From: Escherichia phage EC148
Sequence record: NC_106721.1
Length of the DNA: 64,000 nucleotides
Direction: 5' to 3' (one strand)
Shown here one piece after another: positions 3,505 to 58,937 of this stretch (within the stretch, counting starts at the first letter, position 1; each line of letters starts with the position of its first letter). The position numbers and the translations under genes were made by a program. The notes beneath the pieces were generated by a model. The model did not search any database and was not told the DNA's origin. It saw nothing but the letters and a program-made list of their open reading frames with translations.

Positions 3505-3538
3505 TATTATATTTAAATTTCGAAATTTAAATATAATA
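3505..3538. repeat. 34-bp perfect palindrome
   Basis: TATTATATTTAAATTTCGAAATTTAAATATAATA equals its own reverse complement; centre between 3521 and 3522. Confidence 0.9.
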
Positions 3539-8667: not shown

Positions 8668-8889
8668 TTATTCAATTACTTTAGTTCTAGCTACTTCTTT
8701 TAATAGAATATCTATGGAGGTGCTCAACTCGTTATAATTGAATGGTTTATTTGGATTTGAGGTTACAATTTTCCACGCTAGGGTTGTCTTAGGACTTTCT
8801 TCCCCTTCCTTACGTGTAATCATATTAGCAGCACTCAGTGAAGTACGATGTATTTTAGTTTTACGGCTCAGATGAACGACGTTTCCCAT
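8668..8889 (-). CDS. hypothetical protein (73 aa)
   Basis: Internal ATG at 8889..8887 sits 1 nt after the phoH stop. The longer ORF-track version would overlap phoH by 68 nt. Confidence 0.4.
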   Translation of the reverse strand: MGNVVHLSRKTKIHRTSLSAANMITRKEGEESPKTTLAWKIVTSNPNKPFNYNELSTSIDILLKEVARTKVIE

Positions 8890-8890
8890 A

Positions 8891-9652
8891 TTACACCTTC
8901 CCCATGTCTTTAAAGATGTCATAGAATGCTTTAGACTCAACAGAACGAACGTTATCAATCAATTCGATCATTGAGAATGGGGCATTTTCGTATTTCTCAT
9001 AGACTTCCATAAGGAGTGCTAGACCTGAGTCACCTTTAATGTCTTTCTGAGCTATATCTCCGCAGATAATTAAACGGCAGTCTTGCCCTACACGAGTTAG
9101 AAGACAAATCATTGCCTCAACGGAAATATTCTGAGCTTCATCGACAATTACATAGGAGTTGTTGAAAGTTCTGCCACGAGCATGTTCGACAGCCAAAAAT
9201 TTAATTTTCTGACGTTCGACATATCCCTTATAGGCATGATCGCCGATGGCCCATTTCATACCATCAGCTATTGGCTCCAACCAAGGCTCTAGCTTTTCTG
9301 CTAGATCACCAGGAAGCATACCAAGAGACTTACCTAGAGGTTCATTAGGACGTACGAGGATCACTTGCTCAATATCTGAGTGAATGTCTACGAGTTCCTG
9401 AGCTGCAAGAACGGACGGAATAAAGGTTTTACCAGTACCTGGCTCACCGATGCCCACAGTCACTGTGTTGTTCTTGATCATATTGATATATGATTTTTGC
9501 TCGCGGTTTTTACCTACTAGGGATTTAGCAACTGGGTTAGCGTAATCATTAGAAAAATCAGCCTGAATTACGTTATTCTCATACTTGTTGCCACGCTTTC
9601 TTGAACCATTGCGGTTCTCTCTTTTTTGACGTGCTTTTCCCATAAATAACAC
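8891..9652 (-). CDS. phoH: PhoH-like ATPase
   Basis: 253 aa; Walker A GEPGTGKTF; typical PhoH length. Confidence 0.85.
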   Translation of the reverse strand: MLFMGKARQKRENRNGSRKRGNKYENNVIQADFSNDYANPVAKSLVGKNREQKSYINMIKNNTVTVGIGEPGTGKTFIPSVLAAQELVDIHSDIEQVILVRPNEPLGKSLGMLPGDLAEKLEPWLEPIADGMKWAIGDHAYKGYVERQKIKFLAVEHARGRTFNNSYVIVDEAQNISVEAMICLLTRVGQDCRLIICGDIAQKDIKGDSGLALLMEVYEKYENAPFSMIELIDNVRSVESKAFYDIFKDMGKV

Positions 9653-9995: not shown

Positions 9996-11870
9996 ATGAA
10001 TCGCAATGAAGAACTAAAGTATAAAGAAATGCAGGCGTTAATTAGAAACTGCAAAGAGATTATCGAAGGGTCAGCAGATGAAGAGCTGCTGTTTAATAAT
10101 GCCAATAAACCCTCAGAACGTTTCCCTACACAGAGGGATATGCTTGCAGGTGAATTGAGTAAGTATCTGATTCTAGAAGAAATGCCAATTCAGATTCGAA
10201 ATGCTCATATGATTGGGGATATTCATTTCCATGATGCTGATTATGCTGCATTAGGCATGACTAATTGTTGTCTGGTAGCTCTGGAAGATATGTTGAAGAA
10301 TGGTATGAAGGTTGGTAATGCTGAAATTAGCACTCCAAACTCTATCACTACTGCGGCAGCTATTACAGCTCAGATTATCACACAGGTTAGCTCCCATCAG
10401 TATGGTGGTACTTCCGTGGATCGCCTTGATGAAGTATTAGCTCCTTATGTTCGTAAATCCTATGACAAAAATCATGCGTTTGCAAAACGTTGGACTAAAG
10501 ATGAGGCCAAAGCATCAGTAATGGCTACGGAGATGACTGAAAAAGAAGTTTATGATGCCTGTCAGGGTCTAGAATATGAAATCAATACCATGTTCAACTC
10601 TAATGGTCAGAGTCCATTTATTACCTTTGGTTTTGGTCTAGGAACTTCTTGGGAAGCACGTCTAGTACAGAAAGCAATACTGAAAGTACGCATGGATGGC
10701 TTAGGTATCAATAAACGTACAGCTATCTTCCCGAAACTGGTATTTGTACTTCGTGATGGCGTTAACATGAAACCAGGAGATGTTAATTATGACATCAAGA
10801 AGTTAGCTATGAAATGTACTGCTGAACGTATGTATCCAGATTATATCAGCTATGATAAGGTTGTGGAAGTTACTGGTGACTATAAAGTTTCTATGGGCTG
10901 CCGTTCATTCCTAGCTGCTACAGAAGATGGTGAAACTGCCGGTCGTAATAACTTAGGTGTTGTTTCTGTAAACTTGCCTAGAATTGCTATCGAAGCTGAA
11001 GGAAATATTGATCTATTCTTTGATTTGCTTGAGCTACGTGTGGATACAGCATTAAAAGCGTTGGAGTGGAGAGTTGATCGCTTAAAATACATTCAAGCTA
11101 AAGCTGCACCCATCCTCTATATGTCAGGAGCCTTTGGACTGCGCTTGGAGCCTGATGAATACGTATTCGATCATTTCTATAACCGTGCTTCTGTATCTCT
11201 AGGATATATTGGTTGTCATGAAATGCTACAGTTCATGTTTGGCAAAGATGTAGACACAATGTCCGAGACCAGCATCAAGTTTGTTCAGCGTGTATTGCAG
11301 TACATGCGAGATAGAGTCGATCAGAAGAAGGAAGAAACTAAGTTAGGTTATAGCCTGTATGCTACACCGTCAGAGTCCCTGTGTGATAGGTTTTGCCGTT
11401 TAGATCGTGAATATTTCCCGGAGCATGAAGATATTCTGTCCAAAGGATACTACACTAACTCTCACCACCTTGATGTGGAACGTAAAGTTGCTCCCAATGT
11501 GAAATTTGATTATGAATCTAACTTTACTCCGATTGCTTCTGGTGGGTGTATTTCCTATGTAGAACTACCGGATATGAAACGATTCCCAGATGCACTAGAA
11601 TGGGTTATTAATTATGCTGCTAGTAAAGTTCATTACTTCGGTATTAATACTCCAGTGGATTCTTGTGGTAAATGTGGATTCTTAGGTGAAACAATAGCAT
11701 CCGAAGATGGATTTAAGTGCCCTATCTGTGGTAATCATGACCCCGAAACTCTTGAAGTAACTCGTCGAGTTTGTGGGTATCTTGGAAATCCAGGTGCTCG
11801 TCCATTTAACCCAGGCAAACAGCATGAGGTTATGGGCAGGGTGAAACATCAGGATATTCGAGCTAAGTAA
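9996..11870 (+). CDS. nrdD: anaerobic ribonucleoside-triphosphate reductase (class III)
   Basis: 624 aa; C-terminal glycyl-radical motif RVCGYLG and Zn ribbon CGKCGF...CPICG; consensus promoter and AAGGAG RBS upstream. Confidence 0.9.
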   Translation: MNRNEELKYKEMQALIRNCKEIIEGSADEELLFNNANKPSERFPTQRDMLAGELSKYLILEEMPIQIRNAHMIGDIHFHDADYAALGMTNCCLVALEDMLKNGMKVGNAEISTPNSITTAAAITAQIITQVSSHQYGGTSVDRLDEVLAPYVRKSYDKNHAFAKRWTKDEAKASVMATEMTEKEVYDACQGLEYEINTMFNSNGQSPFITFGFGLGTSWEARLVQKAILKVRMDGLGINKRTAIFPKLVFVLRDGVNMKPGDVNYDIKKLAMKCTAERMYPDYISYDKVVEVTGDYKVSMGCRSFLAATEDGETAGRNNLGVVSVNLPRIAIEAEGNIDLFFDLLELRVDTALKALEWRVDRLKYIQAKAAPILYMSGAFGLRLEPDEYVFDHFYNRASVSLGYIGCHEMLQFMFGKDVDTMSETSIKFVQRVLQYMRDRVDQKKEETKLGYSLYATPSESLCDRFCRLDREYFPEHEDILSKGYYTNSHHLDVERKVAPNVKFDYESNFTPIASGGCISYVELPDMKRFPDALEWVINYAASKVHYFGINTPVDSCGKCGFLGETIASEDGFKCPICGNHDPETLEVTRRVCGYLGNPGARPFNPGKQHEVMGRVKHQDIRAK

Positions 11871-11878
11871 GCTAATCA

Positions 11879-11910
11879 GCCGGGTTGCTAGTCGACCTGG
11901 CTTTTATTTT
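11879..11910 (+). terminator. intrinsic terminator after nrdD
   Basis: Stem GCCGGGU/ACCUGGC with 9-nt loop, then TTTTATTTT. Confidence 0.65.
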
Positions 11911-11912
11911 AT

Positions 11913-11941
11913 TTGCTTTCAGCCAAAAATTTATATATAAT
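11913..11941 (+). promoter_or_regulatory. T5-type early promoter (TTGCTT-17-TATAAT)
   Basis: Followed by AGATTTATAAATTTGAGAGGAG. Confidence 0.7.
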
Positions 11942-11969
11942 AGATTTATAAATTTGAGAGGAGAAAGAT

Positions 11970-12350
11970 ATGGAATTAAAGCCCTATATAGTTGAATCTA
12001 CATGTGGTAGTTTCCATCTGGGTGTAGATGATATTGCTGAGGCTGTCTTTGCTGCCACAGGTGATTACTCGCATATAGAGGGTGTTGGATACCCTACCAT
12101 TATTGGCGATTGGGTGGGAACAAATCTAGATGTATCGCCTTATAACCCATATTGCTTGTTTGATGAAGACAGAGATGAAGTAAAATGTAATCTTGAATTT
12201 GTGTATAATAGAGTGTTAAAAGTATACCAACGTAGCCCCAATGGGTACGAAGATATTACTTGGAGTATTAAACAGTATCTTAAAGATGTATACTCTAGTT
12301 TTTCTGACGAAGACCTAGAAACAGTTGCAGTGGAGTTTAATAATGACTAA
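11970..12350 (+). CDS. hypothetical acidic protein (126 aa)
   Basis: ORF track; T5-type promoter 11913-11941 and GAGGAG RBS. Confidence 0.5.
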   Translation: MELKPYIVESTCGSFHLGVDDIAEAVFAATGDYSHIEGVGYPTIIGDWVGTNLDVSPYNPYCLFDEDRDEVKCNLEFVYNRVLKVYQRSPNGYEDITWSIKQYLKDVYSSFSDEDLETVAVEFNND

Positions 12351-12549
12351 GAATGTGAAACACCTTAAATATCGCTTAATTTACAACGGACGTATGGAAA
12401 CAGAAGATCTGGCCCAATTAGCTATTAACTCTAATGAGGTTACAGTGCGTGCACTGGCAATTGAAAAGTTGCGTGCCTCTTATGAAAATCGTGTTATGGA
12501 ACTAGAGGAGAAACTTTATGGCATTCTCGAAGCCGATACTACCAGATAA
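12343..12549 (+). CDS. hypothetical protein (68 aa)
   Basis: ATG at 12343 overlaps the upstream stop (TAATG); the ORF-track start at 12325 is less likely. Confidence 0.4.
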   Translation: MTKNVKHLKYRLIYNGRMETEDLAQLAINSNEVTVRALAIEKLRASYENRVMELEEKLYGILEADTTR

Positions 12550-12739
12550 GGGTTTAAACTCCGCTTTGGAAAATGCATTAATGCAGCAGTGGGAAACTGG
12601 CTATAAGGATGGTGTTGAATCCTGCGCTACTATGCTAGAAGTTATTGCTAATACCTTAATGGAGAAAGGCAATAAAGAATTAGCTGAGCTATTAGACAGT
12701 ATTGGGCAAAACTTCAGAGAACAGGTGAAAAATGCGTAG
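12518..12739 (+). CDS. hypothetical protein (73 aa)
   Basis: ORF track; GGAGAAA RBS upstream. Confidence 0.45.
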   Translation: MAFSKPILPDKGLNSALENALMQQWETGYKDGVESCATMLEVIANTLMEKGNKELAELLDSIGQNFREQVKNA

Positions 12740-13568
12740 ATTAATTATTATTAGTGGTGCGGGTTTGAGTGTTGAAAGTGGTGTACGAGCCTTCCGTACT
12801 GATACTGCTAGTGGTAAAGCATTGTGGGATGACTATGATCTAGAAGAAGTATGTAATATTCATGCCTTTCGTGGTAATTTTTATCATAAAACCCATATGT
12901 TTTACAACAAGCGTCGTGAAGAGCTAAAAACTGTTGAACCCAATCTTGCGCATTTGCGTATTGGTGAATGGTATAAACAATATCCAGGTCAAGTAGTAAA
13001 CTTGACTACCAACGTTGATGACCTTATTGAGCGTGCTGGCGTTCCACATAGTGACATTCTGCATATTCACGGATATTTAAAAGAGGTTGTTGTAGCTGAT
13101 AGCTACAATAGTAGCAATAAACGGATTATTGATGTAGGATACAATTCTATTGATCCAGATGATTATAAATGGGTTAAACCTAATGTAATCTTCTTTGGAG
13201 AGCATGCTCCTGCATACGCAGAAATGTATAATGTTTTTGACGGTATTACCAGTCAAGATATGATCATTGTGGTTGGTTGCTCTAACCAAGTAATTAACTT
13301 CTACTGGGAATTATTTCCTGTTCTTAATAGGACTGCTGCGAAATTTATGGTAGTTAACTACTATGATAGTGCCCTCGCGGCGGAACCGGGCTATCAAGGT
13401 ATGACTCGTAGTGAGATGTACCAGCTGGAAGAACGTGGTGTCCCTTACTGGAGTAAAGGTGCGGTAGATGCTTTTAGTGATCCTGATTTTATTGCTCGTG
13501 TAGAAGCTCATTTAGAGGGTAGACCTTATGTGTCGAGAAGCAAGGGAAACAGATATGTCCATAGTTAA
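12732..13568 (+). CDS. Sir2-family protein (NAD+-dependent deacylase or NADase fold) without the zinc ribbon
   Basis: Motifs GAGLSVESGVRAFR, PNLAHLRI, TTNVDDL, HIHG, VIFFGE and IIVVGCS match sirtuin Rossmann-fold signatures; no 2xCxxC Zn module present. Confidence 0.75.
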   Translation: MRRLIIISGAGLSVESGVRAFRTDTASGKALWDDYDLEEVCNIHAFRGNFYHKTHMFYNKRREELKTVEPNLAHLRIGEWYKQYPGQVVNLTTNVDDLIERAGVPHSDILHIHGYLKEVVVADSYNSSNKRIIDVGYNSIDPDDYKWVKPNVIFFGEHAPAYAEMYNVFDGITSQDMIIVVGCSNQVINFYWELFPVLNRTAAKFMVVNYYDSALAAEPGYQGMTRSEMYQLEERGVPYWSKGAVDAFSDPDFIARVEAHLEGRPYVSRSKGNRYVHS

Positions 13569-13737
13569 ATCTGTGTATACACACCCCGATGATATATTTG
13601 TATGGGCGGATGGTAGTTGGTGCTATCGCTGTGAGCTGTGGGAGATGGACTATAAATCCGATGACTATGGTGTTATATATGTTGATACGGTTGAGTATGA
13701 TACGTTCTTAGAAAGGAACAAAAATGGAAATAAGTAA
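13555..13737 (+). CDS. hypothetical small protein (60 aa)
   Basis: ATG at 13555 (MSIVKSVY...); overlaps both neighbours; start uncertain. Confidence 0.35.
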   Translation: MSIVKSVYTHPDDIFVWADGSWCYRCELWEMDYKSDDYGVIYVDTVEYDTFLERNKNGNK

Positions 13738-37077: not shown

Positions 37078-39846
37078 CTATGAGTTATCTGGCTTAATAA
37101 GCTCGCTAACAAGTTTCTTCAGTTCGGTTAATTCTTGCTCAAGTTTGTTAACTTTATCAGCTTGATAACGAAATGCGCAAGCTAGATCTGCCATAATGAC
37201 GTTGTTATCAAGTGCTAATGTGTCATCTGCTTTGTCAACAACAATTTGGCGGTCTACATATTCTTCACCGTCATCGTTAACACCTATAACATCTGCAAAA
37301 ATATCTCCACCAGGAATTAATTTTACATATTCCGGGTCTATTTTTAGAAGGTCTTGGGCTATTAAGCCAAATCGCTGTATGTTGCTTCCATTGTATTTAA
37401 ACATTGTCGGAAGCCACTGCATAACGCGATCATAGCTTTCTTTTCCATCTGTATAGATTATATCGTGCTTTAAATCTCTGTCAGAGTTAGCGGCCTTTTG
37501 AAAAATGAAGTTTCCATTTGATGACCATGTGGTTATATCGTTTGAGGCTGGTTGAAACTGGAAGTTACAGAAAAAATTACCATCACCACGAAGTCTTAAC
37601 GAGCAAAAAGGCCAAGCATTATTTCCCTGTGGGATAAGACCCCAAGTTGCACGAATTGGATAACCACCAGTTGATTGTGTACCCCATGAAAGGCCAGGCG
37701 CCCATCCACCATCATTGTTAGGAATAATCTCGCCCCAAACAAGAGCATTACCCCAATAGTTAGGATCATCCCAGCCCATTTGTTGGGTTTTGCCAGTGTA
37801 TTGAGCAGAATGAGTTCTGCCGTCAGGGTAAAACTTGTGCATATAGGACTGTATCCCTGCTTGATACAATTCTATTCCAAAAGATTCAACGTGTGTGTCG
37901 CCTCTTCTGATTAAACCAGCGATAGCGTAATCGTCATACCAGTTGTAACGACTTACACCAGTCCATGTGTTTATTGGTGGATTCATGATTGAGAATAGTT
38001 GTGACGCATTGCGTTCATTCCCGTCTGCATAAATACCAGCCCCAGGAGCTAAGGAAATACTTTTCGCTCCCGAAAAAGTACCATTTTCATTAAACTGATA
38101 ATACTGTGCTAACCCATTATGAAATACGCCTATTGTATGCTTTCCTACGCCTACTTGAGTCTCAAAATACGACTGAGAAGAACCAATATCTTCGCCTTGG
38201 GTATTCTTTAGTTTTGAATGGTATATACCTGCGTTTGCAGTAACTGCATTTTCCGTTTCATTTTCAACATTAAGACTAAGGAACTTTGGCGCATGTTTCT
38301 CACCAAGCCCTATATTATTTCTGATACCATTCGCATCCTTAGCACCTGTACCACCAAATTGAATACCTAGTGGTAGCCATTGATCGGTGGTAGCATCATA
38401 AACGCCCCAATGATCCCCGTCAGCTGGAATGGTTAGATACTTGTTTTTATTTGGAGAATATAAAACTGTTTCTCCAGAATTCTGAAACAGCCTATCAACT
38501 CCTAAATTATATCTAGCACCTTCAGGAGTATCTGCTCCTGTACCCCCAGCCGCAGTTGATAATGGAAGAGTTTCCCATGAAATTCCGTCACCTGTTGCAT
38601 TTCTCTGAAGTACAATAAGACCATCATCTCTAATAACAAATCTATATAATCTATTATGTGAATATAAAAAAGTATGAACCCCATCTTGCACAAGTGAGTC
38701 TATAAGGAGTGTCTGACGAGAAGCATTGATATCCAACAGATCTGAAAGATTATTTTCTTTTAATAACGATTTACTAATGATACCTTCAGCTTTTCCAGCA
38801 GCCACTTCCGCGCGCCCAGCGTCTGTAGATGCGCTTTGTGCGCTACCAGCAGCATTGCTAGCTTGTTGTCCTGCTTCGATAGCGCTATTGCTTGCTTGTG
38901 CAGCGGAAGCAGCAGCAGCATCTTTTAGCGTGGTAGTTTCGGACACAGCAGCGTCCTTAATTCCCTGTGTGTCTATTTTTAGCTGCTCAACGTCTGATTT
39001 TAAAGCTACTGTCTCTGCTACTGCAGTATCCTTAATACCTTGTGTATCTATTTTTAGCTGTTCAACATCTGATTTTAAGCCTTGAATAGTAGTTACTGAT
39101 TGGCTAGCTGAGGCTGCGGAATGGGCTGCATTGGTTTCACTAGTTTTTGCATTGGTTTCACTAGTTTTTGCATTAGTTTCACTAGCTTTTGCATTAGTTT
39201 CCGAGGTTTTTGCAGCGGATGCTGATGCGGCGGCTTGTGCAGAGAATATTTCTGCCCCATCTCTATAGCCTTTAGAATCCGAAGCAGAAGCAGCAGCATT
39301 AGTTTCACTAGCCTTTGCCTTATCTTCACTAGTCTTTGCTGCAATAGCAGAAGCAGCAGCATTAGTTTCACTAGCCTTTGCATTAGTCTCACTAGTTTTT
39401 GCGTTAGTCTCACTAGTTTTTGCGTTAGTCTCACTAGTTTTTGCATTAGTTTCACTAGCCTTTGCCTTATCTTCGCTAGTTTTAGCATTAGTCTCAGATA
39501 TTTTAGCTGCAGCTGCTGATTCCTCCGATTTAGTAGCTGATGCAGCAGATTGAGTAGCAGATGTAGCGGACTGAGTGGCAGAGGCTTCAGAAGCTCCAGC
39601 AGAAATAGCAGCTTCCTGTTCAGAGTTCTTAGCATTAAGCTCCGAAGTTTTAGCCGCTATCTCAGAATCTTTTGCAGCTGCAGCAGACTTAGCTGCAGCC
39701 TCAATAGAAGATACTAACTCACTTGCAGTAATAGAGCTAATAGAATTACCTAGAGTTACTGTATATCTAGGAAACTTACTAGCAGTAGCTTTAGTATCAT
39801 CAATATTTAATATTTGTTGTACAATAATTTTAGTAGTTACTGCCAT
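37078..39846 (-). CDS. ltf: L-shaped tail fibre protein with C-terminal intramolecular chaperone
   Basis: 922 aa; N-terminal K(T/A)SETNA heptad repeats; C-terminal ...NVIMADLACAFRYQ...LEQELTELKK segment resembles self-cleaving chaperone domains. Confidence 0.75.
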   Translation of the reverse strand: MAVTTKIIVQQILNIDDTKATASKFPRYTVTLGNSISSITASELVSSIEAAAKSAAAAKDSEIAAKTSELNAKNSEQEAAISAGASEASATQSATSATQSAASATKSEESAAAAKISETNAKTSEDKAKASETNAKTSETNAKTSETNAKTSETNAKASETNAAASAIAAKTSEDKAKASETNAAASASDSKGYRDGAEIFSAQAAASASAAKTSETNAKASETNAKTSETNAKTSETNAAHSAASASQSVTTIQGLKSDVEQLKIDTQGIKDTAVAETVALKSDVEQLKIDTQGIKDAAVSETTTLKDAAAASAAQASNSAIEAGQQASNAAGSAQSASTDAGRAEVAAGKAEGIISKSLLKENNLSDLLDINASRQTLLIDSLVQDGVHTFLYSHNRLYRFVIRDDGLIVLQRNATGDGISWETLPLSTAAGGTGADTPEGARYNLGVDRLFQNSGETVLYSPNKNKYLTIPADGDHWGVYDATTDQWLPLGIQFGGTGAKDANGIRNNIGLGEKHAPKFLSLNVENETENAVTANAGIYHSKLKNTQGEDIGSSQSYFETQVGVGKHTIGVFHNGLAQYYQFNENGTFSGAKSISLAPGAGIYADGNERNASQLFSIMNPPINTWTGVSRYNWYDDYAIAGLIRRGDTHVESFGIELYQAGIQSYMHKFYPDGRTHSAQYTGKTQQMGWDDPNYWGNALVWGEIIPNNDGGWAPGLSWGTQSTGGYPIRATWGLIPQGNNAWPFCSLRLRGDGNFFCNFQFQPASNDITTWSSNGNFIFQKAANSDRDLKHDIIYTDGKESYDRVMQWLPTMFKYNGSNIQRFGLIAQDLLKIDPEYVKLIPGGDIFADVIGVNDDGEEYVDRQIVVDKADDTLALDNNVIMADLACAFRYQADKVNKLEQELTELKKLVSELIKPDNS
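39128..39505 (-). repeat. two arrays of 21-bp tandem repeats inside ltf, encoding K(T/A)SETNA heptads
   Basis: Units such as GCATTGGTTTCACTAGTTTTT repeat 4 times (39128-39211) and about 9 times with variants (39296-39505). Confidence 0.9.
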
Positions 39847-40268
39847 TATTTAGTTACCCCATCACTGATAAATACTTTACCCTCCATTATACGAAAGGAG
39901 CTAATTGCAGATCCTATAACATCTCTAGTCATAATTATATCATAGTATCCTGCGAATCGCTGACGAGGGTTATATTTATCTCTATCTTTAGATGCTCTAG
40001 CCCCTATATTTTCCACAGATTCTACTGGCAAACTTATAGCTACAGCCCCTTGAGCAGCATCAATAATATTAGTAGTAAAGGATGCTAATATCTCCGCATT
40101 CTCATCTAGGCTATTTTTTATAGTACCCCTTAGAGAATACCCGGTTAAGTTAACGGGGGTATTTGTAGGTGGATAAGTACTATCATCAACATCTAAGAAC
40201 TGCATCATTAAACCATATGGTACTTTCTCATCTATTACTAAATCTATAACTCTATTTTCAGTACTCAT
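39846..40268 (-). CDS. tail collar protein (p132-like)
   Basis: 140 aa; assigned by size and position next to ltf. Confidence 0.45.
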
Positions 40269-58386: not shown

Positions 58387-58823
58387 TATAAGAACCTTGC
58401 GAATCCTGATTTTGTTTCAGTCTTGACTTGTGTCTTTTCTTGAGGATTCTGTAATTTGTCTTTCTGCTTTTGAACCCACACTTTTTGCTTATTAGCAGAA
58501 AATAAAGGAGGTTCTTTTGTGTAAACCTTATGTAATAATTGGTGATGGTGTACACAAAGGGTAACAGTGTCTTCTACTAGCTCATGCCTATATCGATCAT
58601 AGAATGCCGTCCTATTTGAAAGGACTATTTCTTCGTCAGTGAAATCCAATTGGAGTTCTTTAGCAAATTTTTTAACTAGTAGAGACACCGTATGGTAATG
58701 ATGAAGCTCTAATTCTTCAGCACAACCGCAGATAGCACATTGAGAGTCTTTTTTATATTGACTTTTTATTCCGTCTCTCATAAGGGATATAGCATCGCGT
58801 TTATATTTTATATTGCTTGCCAT
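58386..58823 (-). CDS. HNH endonuclease
   Basis: CAICGCAEELELHHYH ... CVHHHQLLHK (HNH/Zn motif). Start set at ATG 58823..58821 (GAGGAG RBS) instead of the ORF-track start at 58910. Confidence 0.7.
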   Translation of the reverse strand: MASNIKYKRDAISLMRDGIKSQYKKDSQCAICGCAEELELHHYHTVSLLVKKFAKELQLDFTDEEIVLSNRTAFYDRYRHELVEDTVTLCVHHHQLLHKVYTKEPPLFSANKQKVWVQKQKDKLQNPQEKTQVKTETKSGFARFL

Positions 58824-58937
58824 AGTGTTCTCCTCAACTGTATGAATATAGTATACATAATCGTATCGAATTTGTAAAGGGGATTTTAAAATGCAGGAAT
58901 GGGATACCAACTGAGTAGTATCCCTTCCTATACTTAT

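Follow-up and report, generated by a model that had tools for sequence, protein, structure and literature searches.

What do the near-identical 21-bp repeats near the start of a phage tail fibre gene encode, and does their number change as these phages diverge? We address this question in a 64,000-nt window, the whole stretch of DNA that was analysed, which belongs to the Tequintavirus group. The repeats are situated in a 922-aa ORF (ltf, a pb1/LtfA homologue) defined by its translation at 37078-39846 on the minus strand. Its product is an exact match to protein URF91869.1 of Escherichia phage EC148 and also matches PHROG tail fibre families, and the gene is 99.7% identical in nucleotides to annotated tail fibre genes in T5_ev212 and the SUT phages. 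Directly upstream is the collar protein gene ltfC/p132 (39846-40268, minus), recognized by the Pfam LtfC domain (PF23926, E=1.6e-14) and by annotations in relatives, and its stop overlaps the start of ltf. Pfam matches to LtfC, PB4 domains and Phage-tail_3 on three upstream ORFs define a tail-tip module with the order pb3-pb4-ltfC-ltf, which is repeated in annotated relatives. Judged by synteny, homology and the annotation of relatives, the 922-aa ORF is the L-shaped tail fibre, which upholds the identity that an earlier note on this DNA had given to the gene. The ORFs and annotation of the window contain a single ltf gene, and ltfB is absent.

Two ends of the protein are recognizable by homology. 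Alignment to DT57C LtfA and T5 pb1 delimits an N-terminal anchoring domain of aa 1-40 (39727-39846, minus), with limits as given in PMC12750041 and PMC10713586. By homology to these two proteins, this segment would be the part that inserts into the LtfC collar; the AF2 model of aa 1-40 is non-helical and of low confidence. Toward the C-terminus, aa 788-842 (37321-37485, minus) match the Peptidase_S74 intramolecular chaperone domain (PF13884, E=7.3e-8, 33 bits against a cutoff of 22), from which self-cleavage is predicted only.

At the DNA level, Tandem Repeats Finder (TRF) detected a 21-bp array at 39127-39214 (4.2 copies, 91% matches, score 132), a second at 39296-39496 (6.6-9.3 copies, score up to 183) and a degenerate, older one at 39532-39582. 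The consensus 21-mer GCAAAAACTAGTGAAACTAAT has 9 matches at no more than 3 mismatches, all on the minus strand and within 39130-39465, and 100 dinucleotide-preserving shuffles gave 0 matches. Read on the minus strand in the frame of the 922-aa ORF, the units translate as AKTSETN, AKASETN and AKTSEDK, and 13 near-identical 21-bp units encode AK(T/A)SE(T/D)(N/K) heptads. These 13 form a subset of a longer region of 28 consecutive heptads at aa 58-253 (39088-39675, minus), in which a register table and position-specific composition reveal a single unbroken register with uninterrupted 7-residue periodicity.

TRF, the register table and the 21-mer scan together define two blocks of near-identical units, so that the two blocks described earlier as K(T/A)SETNA heptads are confirmed as the same AK(T/A)SETN unit shifted by one residue. 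Block 1 (39298-39507, minus; units 9-15 and 17-18) has the order AKISETN, AKTSEDK, AKASETN, three copies of AKTSETN, AKASETN, a spacer AAASAIA, AKTSEDK and AKASETN, and takes in a higher-order repeat of 63 bp at 39283-39402 (1.9 copies, 93%, TRF). Block 2 (39130-39213, minus; units 23-26) reads AKTSETN, AKASETN, AKTSETN, AKTSETN, with its last 21-bp unit ending at aa 239, and non-repeat heptads stand between the blocks. The older array found by TRF corresponds in the register table to degenerate units 5-7 (SEASATQ, SATSATQ and SAASATK; 39529-39591, minus). The units are near-identical even at synonymous sites; for example, units 12 and 13 of block 1 are the same at all 21 bases, and units 11, 15 and 18 are mutually identical. 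A repeat search additionally found a 75-bp tandem duplication further along the helical arm (38936-39078, minus), with a 25-aa unit beginning LKSDVEQLKIDTQGIKD and 82% identity. A related 36-aa unit is duplicated once more in phage OSYSP.

The repeats also leave a trace in the alternative reading frames. A spurious 180-aa ORF of KLVKLMQ repeats occupies 39093-39635 on the minus strand in the +1 frame of ltf, a frame without a stop from 39095 to 39659, and frame analysis reveals a spurious 94-aa antisense ORF with a low-complexity translation across block 1 (39235-39519, plus). Judged from the sequence, these overlapping ORFs are by-products of stop-free repeats, as had been proposed earlier. 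The repeats thus account for spurious ORFs of which one is already in GenBank, since the SA001 record carries the 180-aa ORF as a 'hypothetical protein'.

The earlier note had spoken of the fibre shaft; the arrays lie in the proximal coiled-coil arm that adjoins the collar and not in the distal rod. An AF2 monomer model (pTM 0.29), together with homology to DT57C LtfA and T5 pb1, predicts an alpha-helical (coiled-coil) arm at aa 41-364 (38755-39726, minus), composed of helices at aa 41-188 and 197-364 with pLDDT of about 72-95. On this model the 28-heptad region is part of the N-terminal helical arm. The sole break in the predicted helix is the SKGYRDG motif at aa 189-196 (39259-39282, minus; pLDDT <50), which falls between the two blocks and has a counterpart, GFRDE/GFRNE, in relatives and in DT57C LtfA; this motif may act as a hinge. 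In DT57C LtfA a helix begins at T40 and assembles into a three-helix coiled coil directed radially outward from the LtfC collar (PMC10713586), and the coiled-coil domain of T5 pb1 comprises residues 41-218 (PMC12750041). By analogy with DT57C and T5 we infer trimeric coiled-coil packing for the exact heptad segment; the equivalent of this segment is outside the DT57C model, which appears to end at about residue 52 (PMC10713586), and the T5 pb1 coiled-coil domain is outside the parts that were solved (PMC12750041). Within the heptads, position 1 is always A or S and position 4 is S, rarely F or Y, and positions 3 and 6 are T or A with some I, V or L and are only 7-20% hydrophobic. Both pairs of positions, 1/4 and 3/6, have a/d spacing and neither is classically hydrophobic, a point against the coiled-coil reading, and composition leaves the a/d assignment ambiguous.

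Comparison with relatives indicates how the units change. The Ltf of VEc33 (940 aa) matches a 933-aa P0128 protein, known from E. coli assemblies, at 933 of 933 residues, with one heptad as the sole difference. PK7 and Elw, at 97.6% identity, differ by two clean 21-bp gaps, VEc33 and MET_P1 by one 21-bp gap, and OSYSP and MET_P1 by one 108-bp gap that reflects a unit duplication in OSYSP; short-read misassembly of repeats is unlikely but possible for individual records. Unit indels fully explain the gene-length differences among these compared phages (PK7, Elw, VEc33, MET_P1 and OSYSP), and the frame is kept in every indel observed among them. A 44-bp duplication in the ltf of SA001 would be a further length change. 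The 38 T5-like N-termini compared have between 2 and 17 canonical heptads each. Measured from aa 58, where the heptad register begins, to the conserved marker SQSVTTIQGLK, most of them span 92, 176, 183, 190 or 197 aa, all of which equal 1 mod 7; exceptions to these 7-aa steps span 152, 172 or 193 aa or differ by +9 nt. Repeat counts thus differ among relatives and are not identical everywhere.

Within the lineage of the window itself, one repeat count is common to about ten records, and the only variation is in-register replacement of a unit without net change of length. Comparison with T5_ev212, SUT, MM-1, Elw and ABTNLsp4 locates this whole-unit replacement to unit 14 and the last base of unit 13 (39382-39403, minus), where 8 substitutions within 22 bp turned AKASEDK into AKTSETN at unchanged length; the outgroups all have AKASEDK at unit 14. 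When the window is compared with T5_ev212 over 8.8 kb, 12 differences are seen, 9 of which are inside the arrays, and these 9 constitute the only cluster of at least 3 differences between 13.6 and 58 kb. The overall length found in the window is moreover the commonest among relatives of 84-86% identity, many of which have no net length difference. Because the count is constant in its own lineage and the same length is commonest in distant relatives, the repeats, as far as these sequences tell, are not hypervariable. The constant count, together with the many relatives of equal length, points to infrequent slippage or to selection on length, so that turnover is slow or length constrained. Of the earlier proposal that slippage alters fibre length by units, the gain and loss of whole units is upheld by VEc33 and PK7, and in the window's own lineage the count is constant. 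Viewed as a contingency locus, copy number differs between VEc33 and P0128 and is constant in the window's lineage of about ten records. A phase-variation locus was ruled out, as the 21-bp units are in frame inside the coding sequence and the observed indels preserve the frame.

Taken together, these data make it very probable that the arrays encode heptads of the coiled-coil arm and turn over occasionally by whole 21-bp units. The 13 AKxSExN heptads would contribute about 91 residues, equal to some 13 nm, to a helix about 324 residues long; three such helices would together build a trimeric coiled-coil arm that extends outward from the LtfC collar and bears the distal receptor-binding part. 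The units are near-identical in DNA and would therefore be subject to occasional replication slippage or to unequal recombination and gene conversion; slippage or conversion is what we infer as the mechanism of turnover from the sequence comparisons. Such events would insert, delete or replace whole units of 21 bp, leave reading frame and heptad register intact in each case, and alter the length of the arm by some 1 nm for every unit.

Whether these changes matter to the phage is a separate issue. It is quite plausible, although we lean slightly away from it, that the repeats are what remains of duplications by which a low-complexity coiled-coil spacer arose, with unit indels and conversions being selectively neutral and without functional consequence. 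AKxSExNA arrays of very different length do occur in many unrelated fibre proteins, and the near-identity of units, synonymous sites included, is expected from recent duplication or conversion. However, lineages that have diverged, and in which the sequences of the units have been replaced, still share the commonest length (VEc33, for example, has AKTSEIN/AKASEDK versus AKTSETN here, with overall length equal), and heptad positions 1 and 4 are strictly conserved. The recurring length and these conserved positions suggest a constraint on length or structure. This neutral explanation overlaps the one that we prefer, turnover of arm heptads by whole units, and the sole difference between them is the effect on fitness.

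At the other extreme, heptad number could be under diversifying or host-specific selection, with the reach of the arm matched to the depth of O-antigen or capsule and the arrays serving as an evolvability device. The range of heptad counts (2-17) and of distances to the marker (92-197 aa) in T5-like phages would fit such tuning, as would the one-unit polymorphism between the otherwise identical proteins of VEc33 and P0128, and a helical arm of about 324 aa here against 178 aa in T5, with a much shorter distal part here. Yet we consider it rather unlikely, given that equal length is found in about ten records from varied hosts and countries (E. coli K-12, O157:H7 and Salmonella), that the same length is the commonest at 84-86% identity, which looks like stabilising selection or neutrality, and that the window's own unit change left length unaltered. 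A broader form of this proposal, in which heptad number is a selected, quantised length dial of ~1 nm per unit that matches reach to O-antigen or capsule, and AKxSExNA a portable module serving this purpose in unrelated fibres and some bacterial trimeric adhesins, is in our view unlikely. If it is true that arm length affects adsorption, the arrays would provide a simple natural handle on host reach.

A role of the repeats mainly as homology patches for swapping distal receptor-binding modules is very unlikely. The fibre is indeed mosaic, with the N-terminal roughly 310-370 aa common to T5-like phages that have unrelated distal parts, and with a distal part that, at 88-92% identity, resembles the fibres of ~50-kb siphophages. 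However, the similarity breakpoints, at aa ~308, ~332 and ~369 (query positions 1846, 1772 and 1663 of the nucleotide comparison), coincide with the distal end of the helical arm, 70-130 residues past the last 21-bp unit, and 0 are inside the arrays. Finally, it is extremely improbable that copy-number differences are assembly errors or that the repeats act as non-coding DNA, for instance as a regulatory signal in antisense. Assemblies from short reads are prone to errors at short tandem repeats, but an artefact is unlikely because each array is short (<210 bp) and independent records agree exactly, P0128 being present under two NCBI accessions. On the strand opposite ltf, the T5 RefSeq record places a rho-dependent terminator that spans the 5' part of the gene; yet unit boundaries always hold frame and heptad register, and coding content explains the repeats fully.

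Arrays that gain and lose units are an ordinary feature of phage fibre genes. In T5-like side fibres the repeats mark the coiled-coil arm, which is of use in annotation and engineering, and the observed indels reveal sites of natural tolerance for insertion or deletion of whole heptads that are useful for the design of chimeric or length-altered fibres.

Among known systems, T5 pb1 resembles the fibre described here in three respects: its gene follows the collar gene, its anchoring domain and its helical region, which contains AAKTSETNA, are homologous (45% identity over aa 1-254), and a C-terminal S74-type chaperone domain is present (PF13884 here; in pb1 per PMC4690869). It differs in having fewer tandem units, as AAKTSETNA is mostly scattered with only a short run at the end, in a helical domain of 178 rather than about 324 aa, and in an unrelated distal part, with 1396 aa overall versus 922 aa here. 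DT57C LtfA (PDB 8HQZ chain d; PMC10713586) resembles it over the N-terminal 100 or so residues (E=9.6e-36, in an alignment that covers residues 1-161), and its T40 and helix start are conserved here; in contrast, DT57C has few SETNA-type units and a branched fibre of LtfA plus LtfB rather than a single ltf. Further fibre and adhesin proteins also contain AKxSExNA heptads, in tandem runs of 10-20 units; they include proteins with a T7-type tail fibre N-terminus (PF03906), BppU-like proteins, lambda Stf-like proteins, YadA-type adhesins and DpK2, but the flanking domains are unrelated, so that a motif or module is shared without orthology. DpK2, the Klebsiella phage RAD2 depolymerase, has similar AKxSE heptads at residues 121-177, and the unmodelled N-terminal part around them (residues 1-190) has an extended triple helical bundle at low-resolution cryo-EM (PDB 7LZJ), a point in favour of a helical arm here. 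No Pfam or NCBIfam model covering the AKxSExNA motif was found, and literature searches for the heptad strings returned nothing relevant. A protein search with aa 1-380, in which 8000 candidates were scored and the matches listed were all of 663 aa or less, was swamped by low-complexity sequence and thus yielded no clean census of T5-like fibres, although it did turn up this heptad in unrelated fibres; its E-values, inflated by this composition, were left out as homology evidence. A further parallel is T4 fibritin (gp wac), a segmented trimeric coiled coil whose heptad segments, like the Ltf arm, vary in number and length among related phages. Its sequence is unrelated to Ltf, and the fibritin segments are split by loops and are not near-identical 21-bp tandem units.

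Direct reading of 38900-39800 and Tandem Repeats Finder both confirmed the 21-bp tandem arrays that the earlier note had described in the L-shaped tail fibre gene, ltf. Tandem Repeats Finder placed these arrays at 39127-39214 (4.2 copies, 91% matches) and 39296-39496 (6.6-9.3 copies, varying with the consensus), together with a 63-bp higher-order repeat at 39283-39402 and a degenerate 21-bp array at 39532-39582. When the window was scanned with the consensus 21-bp unit, allowing up to 3 mismatches, nine sites matched, each of them on the minus strand and between 39130 and 39465; 100 shuffles gave no match. The arrays do encode heptads of the fibre, as had been claimed, since they lie inside the 922-aa ltf ORF (37078-39846, minus strand) and are translated in its frame as AKTSETN, AKASETN and AKTSEDK. 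When the protein is set out in sevens, 28 consecutive heptads occupy a single register from aa 58 to aa 253 (39088-39675). Canonical AKxSExN-type units make up 13 of the 28 and fall into block 1 (units 9-15 and 17-18; 39298-39507, minus strand) and block 2 (units 23-26; 39130-39213, minus strand), with units 12 and 13, units 25 and 26, and units 11, 15 and 18 identical base for base. Repeats in ltf are already annotated as repeat_regions in the bombadil record. A further kind of repeat occurs distally in the helical arm, where 75 bp (25 aa) are duplicated in tandem at 38936-39078, and in phage OSYSP a related 36-aa unit is duplicated one extra time (+108 bp). Since 25 and 36 are not divisible by seven, such units would shift the heptad register.

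The window is that of a Tequintavirus. The fibre protein exactly matches an Escherichia phage EC148 protein, and ltf shares 99.7% identity with the tail fibre genes of T5_ev212 and three SUT phages. Upstream on the same strand are the genes for the collar protein ltfC/p132 (Pfam LtfC), pb4 (four PB4 domains) and the baseplate hub, and a Peptidase_S74 chaperone domain lies at the C-terminus of the fibre. The N-terminus of the fibre matches DT57C LtfA (PDB 8HQZ, E=9.6e-36); alignment to T5 pb1 shows 45% identity across aa 1-254, beyond which the two proteins are unrelated. The T5 RefSeq record (NC_005859) annotates a 'rho-dependent transcription terminator' of ~2.5 kb at 84346-86822, antisense to the 5' part of ltf and ltfC, and divides ltfC into two CDS, a split that the DT57C paper (PMC10713586) puts down to an erroneous frameshift in the T5 sequence.

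The DT57C helix that begins at T40 forms a three-helix coiled coil extending radially outward from the collar (PMC10713586). For aa 1-420, an AF2 monomer model based on 15 aligned sequences has helices at 41-188 and 197-364 (pLDDT about 72-95), the sole break falling at the conserved SKGYRDG motif. Given the position of the DT57C coiled coil and these modelled helices, the repeats encode part of the predicted proximal helical arm rather than of the distal rod. Position 1 of the heptad is A or S throughout, S occupies position 4 except in the GYRD region, which has F/Y, and positions 3 and 6 are T/A plus some I/V/L. Pairs 1/4 and 3/6 both have a/d spacing and the composition fits either as core-facing. 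The putative core is not classically hydrophobic.

The repeats also explain the spurious overlapping ORFs, as had been suggested. The +1 frame of ltf is stop-free over 39095-39659, which yields a 180-aa ORF at 39093-39635 containing KLVKLMQ repeats, and two plus-strand frames are largely open, yielding ORFs at 39235-39519 and 38726-39085. These ORFs are by-products of stop-free repeated codons, and one of them stands as a 'hypothetical protein' in the record of Salmonella phage vB_SalS_SA001 (MN445182.1). That record splits ltf into three CDS, one being the spurious ORF read from the repeats in another frame. In it, 44 bp close to the 5' end (ltf codons 19-33) are duplicated in tandem, which frameshifts the gene and reflects either misassembly or a genuine fibre-less mutant.

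Repeat counts differ among isolates, and sequence comparison indicates that they change by whole units. For example, VEc33 Ltf, of 940 aa, is one heptad longer than a 933-aa protein from E. coli assemblies and matches it at 933 of 933 aligned positions. PK7 and Elw, at 97.6% identity over the first kilobase, are separated by two clean 21-bp gaps, one per block, while VEc33 and MET_P1_179_112 are separated by a single 21-bp gap, and OSYSP and MET_P1 by a single 108-bp gap corresponding to the duplicated 36-aa unit farther along the helix. These gaps fully explain the gene-length differences among these relatives. In a set of 38 T5-like N-termini, between 2 and 17 canonical heptads occur, and the spacing from the register start (aa 58) to the conserved marker SQSVTTIQGLK is 92, 176, 183, 190 or 197 aa in most, all equal to 1 modulo 7, with 152, 172 or 193 aa in a few.

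Unit replacement is also apparent in the EC148 lineage. Relative to T5_ev212, nine of 12 differences in 8.8 kb fall within the arrays, eight of them in 39382-39403, and this cluster is the only grouping of at least three differences between 13.6 and 58 kb in the whole-window comparison. At the unit level, unit 12 of T5_ev212 is duplicated in the window and the AKASEDK unit 14 is lost, leaving net length unchanged. The EC148 state is derived, because AKASEDK is kept in SUT, MM-1, Elw and ABTNLsp4, and could have arisen by one shifted-register conversion or by a gain paired with a loss. Remaining differences from T5_ev212 include a patch at 10800-13600 around the anaerobic ribonucleotide reductase gene and downstream genes, and a lone 15-bp indel at 3521. 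Additionally, T5_ev212 has ~720 bp extra (~8824-9563 of its record) relative to window ~58550-58842, between portal-proximal genes and the large terminase gene, overlapping an additional 'Phage protein (ACLAME 141)' beside a nicking endonuclease. Identity drops to 95% in the next 4.3 kb, which covers terminase and receptor-binding protein, versus 99.7% elsewhere. A mobile endonuclease gene, accompanied by a recombination patch, is the probable cause.

Whole-heptad changes among relatives fit the proposal that slippage would alter fibre length in 7-residue steps. EC148, T5_ev212, three SUT phages, MM-1, MM-2, Elw, ABTNLsp4 and an E. coli-assembly copy have one repeat count in common, and many relatives at only 84-86% identity show zero net length difference over the 800-nt array region, with occasional records alone differing by -42, -21 or +21 nt. 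Thus, the arrays are not hypervariable: units seldom slip, or the length of the arm is under constraint. An on/off contingency locus is rejected because every change keeps frame.

The N-terminal arm, unlike the distal part, is specific to T5-like phages. The distal fibre (37176-38356, the C-terminal half of ltf) has 88-92% nucleotide identity to tail fibre genes of ~50-kb siphophages (Salmonella phage slyngel and Escherichia phages G29-2, atuna and MikeNSara) and also matches several Campylobacter phage-labelled records and Aeromonas phage SD04, whose odd host labels may be mislabelling. These matches suggest that phage families have exchanged modules for receptor binding.

The AKxSExNA motif has no covering model in Pfam or NCBIfam. 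Arrays of 10-20 such heptads occur in unrelated T7-type, BppU-like and lambda Stf-like fibre proteins and in YadA-type trimeric adhesins (P0014, P0019, P0022, P0030, P0033, P0038, P0045, P0069 and others among the matches listed from a protein search with fibre aa 1-380). Similar heptads are present in the unmodelled N-terminal part of the RAD2 depolymerase DpK2, a part that includes an extended triple helical bundle. Among known cases, the ltf repeats come nearest to the coiled-coil domains of T5 pb1 and DT57C LtfA. At the standard alpha-helical rise of about 0.15 nm per residue, the 13 units would make up some 13 nm of a ~48-nm arm, as compared with about 26 nm for the T5 arm on the same reckoning.
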